Source: Phytohabitans suffuscus (lineage in GTDB: Bacteria; Actinomycetota; Actinomycetes; Mycobacteriales; Micromonosporaceae). From it: a stretch of 64,000 nucleotides of DNA. The position numbers and the translations under genes are program-made. This document shows, piece by piece, positions 10,563 through 61,670 of the stretch; positions within the stretch are counted from its first letter, which is position 1; every line of letters begins with the position of its first letter. A model generated the notes under the pieces. That model was not told the origin of the DNA. It saw only the letters and a program-made list of their open reading frames with translations, and searched no databases. The stretch is from contig NZ_AP022871.1 in assembly GCF_011764565.1 (NCBI RefSeq), positions 2,664,320-2,728,319 of the forward strand, in the 5' to 3' direction.

Positions 10563-12217
10563 GTGTCCGATACTGCCCGGCTCCACCCTCGTGCCGGTCG
10601 CGTTGCCGAGCCCGGCGATCTTGTCGATGTGCCACACCTCGTGTCGGCGTACTACACCGGCAAGCCGGACGTGTCGGAGGCCGGGCAGCGGGTCGGGTTC
10701 GGCACCTCGGGACACCGCGGATCCAGCCTCAAGCTGGCGTTCAACGAAGACCACGTGGTCGCGATGAGCCAGGCCATCTGCGAGTACCGCGCCGAGCGTG
10801 GTATCGACGGCCCGCTCTACCTGGCCCGCGACACCCACGCGCTCTCCGAGCCGGCGCTGCTCAGCGCGCTGGAGGTCTTCGCCGCCAACGGGGTGCGGGT
10901 GCGGCTGGACAGCCGCGACGGATACACGCCGACGCCGGCGGTGTCGCACGCGATCCTCACCTACAACCGGGGGCGGACGAGCGGCTTGGCCGACGGTGTG
11001 GTCGTCACGCCGTCGCACAACCCGCCACAGGACGGTGGCTTCAAGTACAACCCGCCCTCCGGCGGGCCGGCCGGCACCGACGTCACCAAGGTGATCGAAA
11101 ACCGGGCCAACGCGCTGCTGGAGAGCGGGCTCAAGGAGGTCCGGCGGGTCACCGTGGCGCGGGCGCGGACGGCCGAGACGACCGAGGGGTACGACTACGT
11201 CGGCGCGTACGTCGGCGACCTGCCGAGCGTGGTCGACCTCGACGCGATCCGGGCCGCCGGGGTGCGGATCGGCGCCGACCCGCTGGGCGGTGCGAGCGTC
11301 GCGTACTGGGACGAGATCGCCAGCCGCCACGGCCTCGACCTGACGGTGGTCAACCCGCGGGTCGACCCGGCGTGGCCGTTCATGACGCTCGACTGGGACG
11401 GCAAGATCCGGATGGACTGCTCGTCGCCGTACGCGATGGCCTCGCTGATCGAGCAGCGCGCCGCGTACCAGGTGGCCACCGGAAACGACGCGGACGCCGA
11501 CCGGCACGGCATCGTCACGCCCGACGCCGGCCTGATGAACCCCAACCACTACCTGGCCGTCGCGATCGACTACCTCTACCGCAACCGCCCCGACTGGGCC
11601 GCCGACGCCGCGGTGGGCAAGACGCTGGTCTCGTCCTCGATGATCGACCGCGTGGCGGCCGACCTCGGGCGGCGGCTGATGGAGGTGCCGGTCGGGTTCA
11701 AGTGGTTCGTCGACGGCCTCGTGGACGGCACTGTCGGCTTCGGCGGCGAGGAGAGCGCCGGCGCGTCGTTCCTGCGCCGCGACGGCTCGGTGTGGACCAC
11801 CGACAAGGACGGGATCATCCTCTGCCTGCTGGCCTCGGAGATCATCGCGGTCACCGGCCGGTCGCCGAGCGAGCGCTACGCCGAGCTGACCGAGCGCTTC
11901 GGCGCCCCGCGTACGCCCGGATCGACGCCCCGGCCACCCGCGAGGAGAAGGCGGTGCTCTCCAAGCTCTCCGCCGAGCAGGTCACCGCGGGCGAGCTGGC
12001 CGGCGACCCGATCACCGCCGTGCTCTCCAGCGCGCCCGGCAACGACGCCCCGATCGGCGGCGTGAAGATCGTGACCGGGTCCGGCTGGCTGGCCGCCCGC
12101 CCGTCCGGCACCGAGGACGTCTACAAGCTGTACGCGGAGTCGTTCAAGGGCCCGGAGCACCTGGCCCAGATCCAGGAGGAGGGCCAGGCACTCGTCTCGT
12201 CCGCCCTCAAGGGCTAG
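10563..12217 (+). CDS. pgm: Phosphoglucomutase, alpha-D-glucose-phosphate specific; apparent -1 frameshift near 11917
   Basis: Collinear with E. coli Pgm over the whole length ([23 protein letters not shown]-terminal ...[14 protein letters not shown]). Reading frame switches at ERFGAP|YARIDAPAT, where a C5 run appears as C4. Confidence 0.75.
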
Positions 12218-12340
12218 GGCCCGCGCGACCGCGGAGGGTGAGGCCGCGGGAAAGCAGCTCCACCGCGCTCCACGTTTCCCCGGGGGCCCCCGCGCAACGG
12301 TCCGGACCACCGCGGACGTCGCGGTAGCTCGGATCCCGGT

Positions 12341-13786
12341 CTAAAGGTCGACGCCGGTGAGGACCATGACGCGCGGCTCGGTGTAGTCGTCCATCGCGCT
12401 GCGCAGGCCCTCGCGGCCGACGCCGCTGGCCTTGAGGCCGCCGTAGGGCATCTGGTCGGCGCGGAACGACGGCACGTCGCCGATGATCACGCCGCCCACC
12501 TCCAGCGTGCGGTGGGCGGTGAAGGCGGTCTGCAGGTTGTGCGTGAAGACGCCGGTCTGCAGGCCGAACGCGGAGTCGTTGATCGCGGCGAAGCCGGCGT
12601 CGTCGTCGGTGACCCGCGCGACCGCGAGCACCGGGCCGAAGACCTCTTCGGTGAGCACCTTGGCACCGGCCGGCACGCCGCTCAGCACGGTGGGCGGGTA
12701 GGTCGCGCCCTGCCGGCGGCCGCCGACCAGGACGGTGGCGCCGGCGGCGACGGCCTCCTCGACCCAGCTCTCCACCCTTTTCGCCGCGTCTTCGTTGATC
12801 ATCGGACCGACGTCGACACCTTCGTCGGAGGGGTCGCCGGTCCTGAGCGCCTCGACGGCCGCGACGAGCCGGGGCACGAACGCGTCCTCCAGGTACTCGT
12901 GCACGAACACCCGCTGCACCGCCACGCAGCTCTGCCCGGCCTGGAAGTTGCCGAAGAGCGCGATCCGCCGCGCCGCGTAGTCCAGATCCTCGATCGACGA
13001 CCAGTCGCCGCAGACCAGGGCGGCCGCGTTGCCGCCAAGCTCCAGCGTCACGTGCTTGTGCGGCACCTTCTCGCGGATCGCGTACCCCACCGGGCCCGAG
13101 CCGGTGAACGACACGACCGGCAGGCGCGGGTCTTCGACCAGCGTGCCGGCGCGGTCGTTGGGCACCGGGAGCACCGAGAACATGCCCGCCGGCAGGTCGG
13201 TCTCGGCCAGCAGCGAGCCGAGCAGCAGCGCGGTCAGCGGCGTGGCCGGCGCCGGCTTGAGGATGATCGGCGCGCCCACCGCGATGGCCGGTGCGACCTT
13301 GTGGGCGACGAGGTTGAGCGGGAAGTTGAACGGGCTGATCCCGAGCACCGGCCCGCGCGCGAAGCGGCGCACGAGCGCGATCCGCCCGGCCGCCGACGGG
13401 TCGGTGTCGAGCCTCTGGAGCTCACCCGCGAAGCGGCGCGCCTCCTCGGCGGCCCACCGGAACGTGGAGGCGCCGCGCGCCACCTCGGCCCGGGCCCACT
13501 TGATCGGCTTGCCGTTTTCGGCGGTGATGAGCTGGGCCACCTCGTCGGCCCGCTCGGTGAGCCGGCGGGAGACGTGGTCCAGCGCCGCCGCGCGGGCGGC
13601 GGCGGGGAGCGCCGAGGCTTCGGCCGCCACGTCGGCGGCGGCCGCGACCGCCCGCTCGACCTGTTCGGGAGTGGCGTTCGCGGTACGCCCGACCGTGCGA
13701 CCGTCATAGGGGTGGCGCACATCGAGGAGGTCGTCGCTGGTGCTCTTCTGACCGGCCACGTAGAAGGGCGTGATCTCCATGGCCAA
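12341..13786 (-). CDS. Aldehyde dehydrogenase family protein
   Basis: 481 aa with ELGGNA, catalytic-Cys region FGNFQAGQSCVA and EEVFGPV motifs. Confidence 0.85.
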   Translation of the reverse strand: MAMEITPFYVAGQKSTSDDLLDVRHPYDGRTVGRTANATPEQVERAVAAAADVAAEASALPAAARAAALDHVSRRLTERADEVAQLITAENGKPIKWARAEVARGASTFRWAAEEARRFAGELQRLDTDPSAAGRIALVRRFARGPVLGISPFNFPLNLVAHKVAPAIAVGAPIILKPAPATPLTALLLGSLLAETDLPAGMFSVLPVPNDRAGTLVEDPRLPVVSFTGSGPVGYAIREKVPHKHVTLELGGNAAALVCGDWSSIEDLDYAARRIALFGNFQAGQSCVAVQRVFVHEYLEDAFVPRLVAAVEALRTGDPSDEGVDVGPMINEDAAKRVESWVEEAVAAGATVLVGGRRQGATYPPTVLSGVPAGAKVLTEEVFGPVLAVARVTDDDAGFAAINDSAFGLQTGVFTHNLQTAFTAHRTLEVGGVIIGDVPSFRADQMPYGGLKASGVGREGLRSAMDDYTEPRVMVLTGVDL

Positions 13787-60569: not shown

Positions 60570-60576
60570 GAACTGG

Positions 60577-61670
60577 TCACAAAATGCCCGCAGCGGCACC
60601 GCGCAGCTCTTCGATCGTGACCCCTTCGATACCGACGCGGAACCGATCCCATCTGGCAGCACCACACGCATGCTGCCGCCGCGCACCAGGGCTATCTGCC
60701 GCAGCGCGGCGTCGAACCGGCCGGCGGCGGCAGGGGGCAGCTCGAAGTGGGTGGGCAGCTCGTACCGCGCCAGCACTTCCATGATCCGGTGGCTGTTGTG
60801 GCCCGTGAGGTAGCCACGCGCCTCCGCGATCCGGGTTGCGGCCGCGATTCCGATCGCCACCGCCTCACCATGCTCAATGCCGTGATCCGTCGCGATCTCA
60901 AGCGCGTGGGCCGTCTCGTGTCCGAAGTTCAGAAGACGGTCGAGATCGTTCTCGTAAGGGTCAGGTGTCAGCAGGCGCAGCTTGGCCATCAGCGCTCGTC
61001 CGACTATCTCCTCGATTCTCGCGCTCCCGGCGAAAGCCTCCGACGGTCCGGCCTCCACCATCTCGAACAGTGCCCGGTCGGTGATTGTCGCCACCTTGAT
61101 GATCTCGGCCATCCCGGCCCTGAGGACGTCTCGCGGAGCGTCCTCCACGATCGCCGGATCCACGACGACGGCCGACGGGTGGTAGAACGCGCCGATGAGG
61201 TTCTTTGCCCACGGCGTGTTGACGGCTACCTTCCCACCGACCGCGGCGTCGACCTGCGCCGTCAGCGTGGTGGGCAGGCAGACGTACGGGATGCCACGCA
61301 TGTAGCAGGCCGCCACGAACCCGACCGTGTCCGTCACACTCCCGCCGCCGACAGCGACCAGGGTTGTGGTCCGGTCCGCGCTCAGAGCGTGTAGTCGCTC
61401 GATGAGCTGAGCGAACCCGTCGAGTGTCTTCGCGGCCTCACCCGCACTGATGGTGATCGCGTCGACCCGCTCGAACGCGCCGCCGAGCACCTGATTCACG
61501 ACCGGTCCCAAAACGGCGCCGACCTTGGCGTCGGAGATCCAGATCGCCCTTCGCCCACTCGTCCGTGACGCGAAGATCACGCCGCTGCGGCTCAGGCTGC
61601 CGTGGCCGACCACGATCCGGCAGAGCGCTGGTCTCCCGACATTCAATGTGATGTCGAGGTCGCCGCCCAT
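60577..61670 (-). CDS. 3-dehydroquinate-synthase-like sugar-phosphate cyclase (EEVS/DDGS/DHQS family); apparent -1 frameshift near 60650
   Basis: DHQS-family pattern (GGGSVTD, metal-binding His region HETAHALE...HGEAVAIG). True C-terminus ...EELRGAAAGIL* lies in the neighbouring frame. An alternative TTG start at 61646 overlaps the GHMP kinase stop (TTGA). Confidence 0.7.

Follow-up and report, generated by a model that had tools for sequence, protein, structure and literature searches.

PacBio-only assemblies of high-GC Streptomyces are known to retain residual indels in G/C homopolymers (PMC6923854, PMC4832174). In Streptomyces albus SM254 (PMC4832174) and in GS93-23, S3-4 and 3211-3 (PMC6923854), these are one-base length errors that occur only in G or C homopolymers, and they were found as frameshifts in conserved genes of genomes of 71-73% G+C (PMC4832174, PMC6923854). 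We describe likewise one-base length errors restricted to C/G runs in a 64-kb stretch of DNA from Phytohabitans suffuscus, hereafter the window. The proteins encoded in the window, among them a truncated PotA of 299 aa (BCB85073.1), are exact matches to those of AP022871, the record of P. suffuscus NBRC 105367T (BCB85xxx proteins, Psuf_ locus tags), so the identity of the record is a direct observation. AP022871 was assembled with Canu 1.4 from PacBio RSII (P6) reads; its description does not mention polishing (PMC7692728), and the assembly was apparently never polished. The broken genes of the window are almost certainly sequencing or assembly errors, due to under-calling of homopolymers in an unpolished PacBio CLR record, and not pseudogenes.

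We compared positions 1185-64000 of the window with contig BAAGZC010000002.1 of a second P. suffuscus assembly, GCA_054778935.1, using five overlapping loci. The differences were one-directional: over 62.8 kb, the window carried 17 one-base deletions, all seen as gaps in the window, with no insertions (extra window bases) and no substitutions (mismatches). All 17 missing bases fell within C/G runs, which were 4-6 bases long in GCA_054778935.1 and 3-5 bases long in the window. When the 17 bases were put back into the window, its sequence became identical to the GCA_054778935.1 loci. None of the deletions occurs in that assembly. The deletion density in the window was 271 per Mb (17 per 62.8 kb). 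Thirteen sites lay within 11 genes and four were intergenic, and 11 of the ∼56 genes in the window (about 20%) were split or fused. The sites are listed below in window coordinates, with the run length in GCA_054778935.1 followed by that in the window. Each is supported by the second assembly; for some, support from the sister species P. kaempferiae is given as well.

11905-11908: C run, 5 to 4; pgm (10563-12217, + strand), codon 448 of 551
14212-14215: C run, 5 to 4; aminobutyraldehyde-dehydrogenase-like ALDH gene (13894-15326, + strand), codon 107 of 477
33074-33077: G run on the + strand, 5 to 4; 196-aa membrane protein gene (33047-33636, - strand), codon 187; also P. kaempferiae
33650-33654: C run on the + strand, 6 to 5; intergenic, 14 nt before the 196-aa gene begins; also P. 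kaempferiae (6-mer)
33967-33969: G run, 4 to 3; agmatinase-family gene (33738-34734, - strand), second break, codon 256 of 332
34384-34387: G run, 5 to 4; agmatinase-family gene (33738-34734, - strand), first break, codon 116 of 332; also P. kaempferiae
37528-37530: G run, 4 to 3; potB (36721-37631, - strand), codon 34 of 303; also P. kaempferiae
37921-37924: C run, 5 to 4; potA (37628-38754, - strand), codon 277 of 375
40682-40686: G run, 6 to 5; class-I methyltransferase gene (40634-41268, - strand), codon 195 of 211; also P. kaempferiae
48256-48260: G run, 6 to 5; DUF3499 gene (48170-48534, - strand), codon 92 of 121
48556-48559: C run, 5 to 4; intergenic
50784-50787: C run, 5 to 4; fbiC/CofGH (49756-52265, - strand), codon 493 of 836, within the CofG-CofH linker
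57216-57219: C run, 5 to 4; intergenic
58312-58315: G run, 5 to 4; intergenic
58694-58696: C run, 4 to 3; NUDIX hydrolase gene (58354-58942, - strand), codon 83 of 196
58914-58917: C run, 5 to 4; NUDIX hydrolase gene (58354-58942, - strand), second break, codon 9 of 196
60621-60624: C run, 5 to 4; DHQS-like gene (60577-61670, - strand), codon 349 of 364

An earlier, sequence-only reading of this DNA had proposed eleven one-base deletions in C/G homopolymers, and GCA_054778935.1 showed all eleven sites to be real deficits of one base. The number itself was too low, as six further deletions had been missed: the four intergenic ones, that in the DUF3499 gene and the second one in the NUDIX gene. 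Most of the proposed positions were close to the true run; 11917 in pgm, 33060 in the gene labelled NfeD and 33975 in speB correspond to the runs at 11905-11908, 33074-33077 and 33967-33969, respectively, and 14212 in ALDH, 34385 in speB, 37527 in potB, 37922 in potA, 40684 in the methyltransferase gene and 58697 in the NUDIX gene to those at 14212-14215, 34384-34387, 37528-37530, 37921-37924, 40682-40686 and 58694-58696. The exceptions were fbiC (50828) and the DHQS-like gene (60650), which were ∼42 and ∼27 nt off.

The probability that a base was lost depended on run length, as observed directly. No base was missing from the 31,573 C/G runs of three or fewer bases, while losses affected 3 of 306 4-mers (1%), 11 of 64 5-mers (17%) and 3 of 10 6-mers (30%). 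In A/T runs, no deletions were found between the window and GCA_054778935.1. Bases within C/G runs of at least four make up 2.55% of the total, and the chance of 17 of 17 deletions falling there is P ∼8e-28. Apart from the run itself, no common motif, slippery or otherwise, was apparent in the flanks of the 17 runs. At the sites, where no gene begins or ends, the GC3 frame plot shifted by -1, and GC3 in the coding frame stayed at ∼0.97 on both sides of each break. At the eleven sites proposed from the sequence, all frame changes were -1 in the reading direction, as had been claimed. The window thus has the features of long-read homopolymer error: its lesions are indels only, confined to homopolymers at a rate that rises with length, one-directional, reversible with restoration of the genes, and located in a long-read record.

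These observations bear on the reading in which the deletions are real and the NBRC stock, unlike the stock behind the second assembly, is a slippage hypermutator or has undergone a burst of pseudogenisation. Both assemblies are public records, and slippage in mononucleotide runs is a genuine mutational process. However, true slippage lengthens runs as well as shortening them (+1 and -1), and substitutions would be expected in a stock that had diverged, whereas the window has 17 deletions with no insertions and no substitutions. The mixed spectrum of lesions and the relaxed constraint typical of pseudogenes were not found in the window, and the lesions were not reproduced in GCA_054778935.1. 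Moreover, 11 of ∼56 genes, including pgm, fbiC and potAB, would have been knocked out. A uniform density would give ∼2,700 errors per 10.15 Mb genome, which is an extrapolation and not a measurement, and a type strain that grows in culture could not carry so many lesions. Finally, the platform and assembler of AP022871 are known for exactly such errors. We therefore consider real deletions very improbable. Still less probable, by about half, is that the short runs are truly in NBRC 105367 DNA through a deletion-only, homopolymer-contracting mutator that inactivated about one-fifth of the genes with zero substitutions relative to the other stock.

The errors also produced two giant ORFs, both on the - strand:

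26056-33636: artefactual ORF of 2526 aa
59817-61745: artefactual ORF of 642 aa, a fusion of the DHQS-like gene and an SDR gene

The sequence-only reading had regarded both as by-products; correctly so, as both vanished once the 17 bases were restored. The 2526-aa ORF runs from the start of the 196-aa gene through a 689-aa gene, read out of frame with no stop, into a genuine 1637-aa gene, and it arises from the deletion at 33074-33077, which removes the TAA stop of the 196-aa gene. In the corrected sequence at 26056-33636, the longest ORF is 1707 aa, and genes of 196, 689 and 1637 aa are called in GCA_054778935.1. Similarly, the deletion at 60621-60624 removes the stop of the DHQS-like gene, whose reading then continues in the frame of the SDR gene downstream (59817-60599); GCA_054778935.1 has separate genes of 364 aa (DHQS-like) and 260 aa (SDR), which overlap by 23 nt.

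The affected genes are intact in the gene calls of GCA_054778935.1. We also repaired genes of the window. Placement by conserved motifs was exact at eight coding sites (seven genes); placement by eye put the base off the true run in three cases (fbiC, 50828; DHQS-like, 60650; 196-aa gene, 33071/33057), in which the protein lengths were still right. These three breaks are in C-terminal or linker regions of low conservation. Restoration of the genes was observed directly. Seven of ten repaired proteins, namely pgm, ALDH, the arginase-family protein, potA, fbiC, NUDIX and the methyltransferase, matched NCBIfam or Pfam profiles in a single stretch that spans the junction, in most cases near full length. 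Repaired pgm matched TIGR01132 over positions 2-546 of 546 in a single stretch (927.7 bits), and repaired fbiC matched NF006687 over 9-836 of 849 in a single stretch (1482.6 bits). The repaired ALDH matched NF010000 (4-473 of 475) and Pfam Aldedh (9-461 of 461), the agmatinase-family protein matched Pfam Arginase in a single stretch (1-277 of 280), and the methyltransferase matched NF041658 (7-188 of 191). The repaired potA product matched TOBE_2 (1-76 of 76) and also potA models. In the NUDIX protein, the Pfam NUDIX match crosses the junction in both the repaired and the GCA_054778935.1 version, and the DUF3499 protein of GCA_054778935.1 matched PF12005 (2-118 of 119).

Profiles also matched potB and the DHQS-like protein, with coverage ending before the junction (breaks at codons 34 and 349, respectively). 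These two breaks rest on the second assembly and, for potB, also on P. kaempferiae. For three of the four intergenic sites (48556, 57216 and 58312), as for the DHQS-like site beyond the profile coverage, the support consists of the second assembly. Searches of Pfam and NCBIfam at thresholds up to E≤1 gave no match for the 196-aa protein, and the NfeD label that it had been given from the sequence was not sustained. Scans for Rfam families and tRNAs likewise found nothing in the window.

Comparison with relatives gave the same picture. In a scan of a genome collection, the best match among those listed was P. kaempferiae, with 92% amino-acid identity. This sister species has the longer run length, that of GCA_054778935.1, at 7 of 7 sites compared: its DNA aligns without gaps to the longer version at six coding sites and shares the 6-mer at the intergenic site 33650-33654. 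Its orthologues of potA, potB, the agmatinase-family gene, the methyltransferase and the 196-aa protein are all in a single frame (5 of 5 genes compared). The potB orthologue encodes 303 aa and carries an identical CCCC, and that of the 196-aa protein encodes 196 aa. Micromonospora (potA, potB and the agmatinase-family gene) and Catellatospora (potA and potB) likewise have orthologues in one frame; for the methyltransferase and the 196-aa protein, P. kaempferiae alone yielded an orthologue. Overall, the second assembly, the relatives and the PacBio RSII/Canu 1.4 origin support the earlier proposal of a systematic assembly error and not pseudogenes.

A pairwise comparison is symmetric and cannot by itself tell which sequence is wrong, so the window might be right and GCA_054778935.1 might contain 17 spurious one-base homopolymer insertions. 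Against this, the genes obtained with the longer runs are intact, have their full length and match profiles in a single stretch, GC3 keeps a continuous frame only with the added base, and P. kaempferiae and Micromonospora side with the longer version. We judge this reading extremely unlikely. The weakest of the alternatives, functional frame changes by programmed ribosomal frameshifting or phase-variable contingency tracts, can be dismissed as having a negligible probability: mononucleotide runs are a substrate of phase variation, but the runs in the window, at 3-5 bases, are much shorter than phase-variable tracts usually are, four of the sites fall between genes and the affected genes are unrelated housekeeping genes, the proteins are single-frame in the sister species P. 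kaempferiae, no common slippery motif is visible near the sites, and neither a conserved slippery site nor a tract of at least 7-8 nt with a frameshift kept in relatives was found.

An error in the record, therefore, is the reading that we prefer, and its direction is suggested by gene integrity, conservation across species and the known bias of the platform. The probable mechanism is consensus under-calling of the raw reads, a step that we infer. Single-molecule reads drop homopolymer bases, and an unpolished consensus under-calls the length of G/C runs. The genome has 71% G+C, so that such runs are common inside genes, and each lost base shows up as a -1 frameshift. The genes are almost certainly intact in the organism, with the lesions confined to the record.

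The consequences concern users of AP022871, a public 'complete genome' that has 11 of the ∼56 genes of the window split or fused. Protein databases already list gene fragments as individual 'hypothetical' or domain-only entries. For example, PotA, a single 375-aa protein in GCA_054778935.1, is represented by BCB85073.1/WP_408635456.1 (299 aa) and BCB85072.1 (76 aa)/WP_408635455.1 (83 aa). Care is needed with gene content, pseudogene counts, pangenomes and the large PKS/NRPS genes that were the reason for publishing AP022871. The remedy is frameshift-tolerant gene calling or use of the newer assembly, GCA_054778935.1. Three sibling Phytohabitans genomes made in the same way (AP022870, BLPG01 and BLPF01) merit the same check.

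True mass pseudogenisation, as in the reductive evolution of Mycobacterium leprae, also makes many housekeeping genes look disrupted. True pseudogenes carry mixed lesions, from nonsense mutations and larger indels to substitutions built up over time, and independent assemblies share them. By contrast, the window has one lesion type, no substitutions and lesions that are absent from the second assembly. The artefact is of an already known kind and involves no new biology. The error profile had been ascribed from the sequence to long-read or flow-based sequencing; the former holds, the reads being PacBio CLR, whereas flow-based instruments (454 and Ion Torrent), which miscall homopolymers alike, were not the platform used for AP022871. 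Oxford Nanopore (R9.x) assemblies show the same symptom, homopolymer frameshifts, with the same remedy, short-read polishing (PMC8812927, PMC9262707), but differ in platform from AP022871, a PacBio RSII record (PMC7692728). The closest counterparts are the PacBio-only Streptomyces assemblies, which after HGAP/Quiver polishing still contained 70-335 indels in each genome of 7-9 Mb. The density in the window is ∼10 times higher than in those Quiver-polished assemblies, which fits a Canu 1.4 consensus with no reported polishing step.

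An exact-sequence look-up located the intact 400-aa saccharopine-dehydrogenase-family protein (34731-35933, - strand) on contig BAAGZC010000002.1 (363,525 bp) of GCA_054778935.1, a second assembly of P. suffuscus that served as the reference. Four further look-ups with intact window proteins yielded overlapping reference loci that together span window positions 1185-64000; positions 1-1184 lie past the contig end (window 1185) and outside the comparison. The gene at 229-1365 (- strand), which straddles this end, shows no evident frameshift, as its GC3 signal stays in a single frame throughout 232-1287. 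According to BLASTN over 1185-64000, the reference loci and the window differed by 17 one-base gaps, with no mismatches and no extra window bases. Each gap was a base absent from the window, within a C or G run, and the window with the 17 bases put back matched the reference loci exactly. All eleven deletion sites listed in the sequence-only reading are among the 17. Seven of its coordinates were counted as at most 3 nt off; those for the agmatinase-family site at 33975, pgm, the gene labelled 'NfeD', the DHQS-like gene and fbiC were ~6-42 nt off. Six further sites had been missed:

33650-33654, intergenic
48256-48260, DUF3499 gene, codon 92 of 121
48556-48559, intergenic
57216-57219, intergenic
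58312-58315, intergenic
58914-58917, NUDIX gene, second break, codon 9

Thirteen of the 17 sites are coding and break 11 genes. The longer version restores all of these, and the affected genes are called intact in GCA_054778935.1.

Protein lengths in the reference assembly
pgm, 551 aa
ALDH, 477 aa
arginase family, 332 aa
unnamed membrane protein ('NfeD'), 196 aa
potB, 303 aa
potA, 375 aa
methyltransferase, 211 aa
DUF3499, 121 aa
fbiC, 836 aa
NUDIX, 196 aa
DHQS-like, 364 aa
SDR, 260 aa

Error rates were calculated as the share of C/G runs in the reference version that were shortened in the window. Runs of 1-3 bases were unaffected (0/31,573; 0%), and the share was 1% for runs of 4 (3/306), 17% for runs of 5 (11/64) and 30% for runs of 6 (3/10). 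No A/T run was affected, A/T runs of at least 4 being rare in the region. As C/G runs of at least 4 hold just 2.55% of bases, the probability that all 17 would fall there by chance is ~8e-28. On the + strand, ten of the runs are of C and seven of G, indicating no strand bias. Over the 62.8 kb, the 17 deletions amount to 271 per Mb. The intact reference, the lack of substitutions and the confinement of the deletions to C/G runs support the earlier proposal of assembly error rather than pseudogenes. Real mutations in the NBRC stock are an implausible source: they would have arisen with no accompanying substitution or insertion and would have inactivated about one fifth of the genes.

The converse explanation, that GCA_054778935.1 holds insertion errors, conflicts with the integrity of the genes, with the GC3 signal and with the relatives. 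G+C is 67-77% across the window and GC3 is ~0.97 in true coding frames, making a GC3 frame plot highly discriminating. In this plot, the switch of exactly -1 (reading direction) that had been claimed at all eleven sites was found at seven, with no stop or start codon separating the two parts; the signal was weak or unclear at the sites in the 196-aa gene, the methyltransferase, the NUDIX gene and the DHQS-like gene. Three-frame translations bore out the reported collinearity, placing halves of one protein around each site, with junctions (slash) such as '...ERFGAP/AYARIDAP...' in pgm, '...GTGT/PEPGGLT...' in the agmatinase-family gene and '...LLPYLLLLP/GGLWLTVFF...' in potB. Proteins rebuilt by lengthening the nearest C/G run by one base were then matched to profiles, which did not cover the junction in potB, the DHQS-like protein or the 196-aa protein.

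Profile matches of repaired proteins
pgm, TIGR01132, positions 2-546 of 546, 927.7 bits
ALDH, NF010000, 4-473 of 475
agmatinase-family protein, Pfam Arginase, 1-277 of 280
potA, potA and TOBE_2 models, spanning residue 278
fbiC, NF006687, 9-836 of 849, 1482.6 bits
NUDIX, PF00293, spanning the junction
methyltransferase, NF041658, 7-188 of 191

For the genes compared, orthologues in relatives were single-frame, a check suggested with the sequence-only reading. In Phytohabitans kaempferiae, the closest other species among the matches listed (92% amino-acid identity with the query protein), potA, potB, the agmatinase-family protein and the 196-aa protein are single-frame and full length, and the methyltransferase is single-frame over residues 3-208 of 211. 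Single-frame potA, potB and agmatinase-family protein also occur in several Micromonospora genomes, and single-frame potA and potB in two Catellatospora genomes. P. kaempferiae DNA was gapless against the reference length at 6/6 coding sites compared: the run was identical at two (GGGGG in potA, CCCC in potB) and, at four, of the same length and interrupted by a substitution. At the one intergenic site compared, the G6 run is conserved. That the tracts are short, that some sites are intergenic and that orthologues are single-frame contradicts programmed frameshifting or phase variation.

Two long ORFs on the - strand, at 26056-33636 (2526 aa) and 59817-61745 (642 aa), had been regarded as by-products, and both are absent from the corrected sequence. 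The 2526-aa ORF starts where the 196-aa gene truly does; with that gene's TAA stop abolished by the deletion at codon 187, it crosses the 689-aa gene out of frame, stop-free by chance, and finally continues in frame with the 1637-aa gene, which is genuine. In the 642-aa ORF, the DHQS-like stop is lost at codon 349 and the SDR frame is joined; in the reference, these two genes are in different frames and share 23 nt. Neither the 196-aa protein (Pfam/NCBIfam) nor the 689-aa protein had a family match, and the profiles give no support for the label 'NfeD' on the former. The alternative frame over the 689-aa gene lacks stops for ~2 kb.

Loci in the window
13894-16679 and 33738-44100, concentration of polyamine-related genes: aminobutyraldehyde-dehydrogenase-like ALDH, two class-III aminotransferases, agmatinase-family enzyme, saccharopine-dehydrogenase-family protein, DAO/Thi4-type oxidase, potABC with solute-binding protein, AsnC regulator; 5/17 errors
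17270-25550, 854-aa GerE/LuxR-type, HSP70-like 419-aa, IniB-like 302-aa and 475-aa (no family match) proteins, dynamin-family 605-aa GTPase; free of errors
26056-33636, - strand, operon of 196-aa membrane protein, 689-aa protein and 1637-aa DUF3686/DUF7902/AAA protein
49756-55313, F420 biosynthesis: fbiC (CofGH), 296-aa protein (no family match), cofD, F420 ligase; adjoined by whiB, Zincin_1 protein and DUF3499; errors only in fbiC and DUF3499
58300-62800, NUDIX hydrolase, 294-aa protein (no significant family match), SDR, DHQS-like enzyme, GHMP kinase, NTP-transferase, glycosyltransferase; 4/17 errors

The 17270-25550 cluster resembles the mycobacterial iniBAC-type dynamin locus. Relative to the remainder of the window, the 58300-62800 region is lower in G+C (0.67-0.69) and its GC3 signal is weaker; it could represent a cyclitol or sugar-nucleotide cluster gained by horizontal transfer. 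Its DHQS-like protein matches aroB (TIGR01357) and TIGR04425, 'AroB-related putative sugar phosphate phospholyase (cyclizing)', both under cutoff.

Exact look-ups found window proteins deposited as BCB85045.1, BCB85056.1, BCB85069.1 and BCB85091.1 of P. suffuscus (10,148,719-bp sequence). The 299-aa ORF truncated by the potA deletion is BCB85073.1 (Psuf_023860, 'hypothetical protein') and the C-terminal PotA remnant is BCB85072.1 (76 aa); PotA of GCA_054778935.1 is GAB3504682.1 (375 aa). For the genome of P. suffuscus NBRC 105367T (AP022871; 10.15 Mb, one scaffold), the published method is PacBio RSII sequencing (P6 chemistry) followed by Canu 1.4 assembly, with no polishing step described (PMC7692728). 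Of the uncorrected long-read or flow-based data previously suggested, the long-read source is thus the one that holds. Errors in PacBio continuous long reads are mostly indels, and the consensus built from them under-calls G/C homopolymers; from the pattern and this established platform behaviour, we infer such under-calling to be the mechanism. The frameshifts are a known artefact without biological novelty, as accurately diagnosed from the sequence. Their value is as a warning on the AP022871 record, which probably extends to three sibling Phytohabitans assemblies (AP022870, BLPG01 and BLPF01). Adenosylhomocysteinase has 409 aa in P. houttuyneae (GFJ84672.1) versus 497 aa in P. suffuscus, P. 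flavus and P. sp. ZYX-F-186. As BLPF01 was built by the same PacBio/Canu procedure, the 409-aa form may be the same type of artefact, yet the identical sequence has a second accession, GAA4450583.1.

In published comparisons, high-GC Streptomyces assemblies retained 70-335 differences per genome after HGAP; a separate report counted 205 indels remaining after Quiver, of which 'nearly all' lay in G or C homopolymers (PMC4832174). The window's density is about ten times higher than in these HGAP/Quiver-treated assemblies, as expected if signal-aware polishing was not applied.
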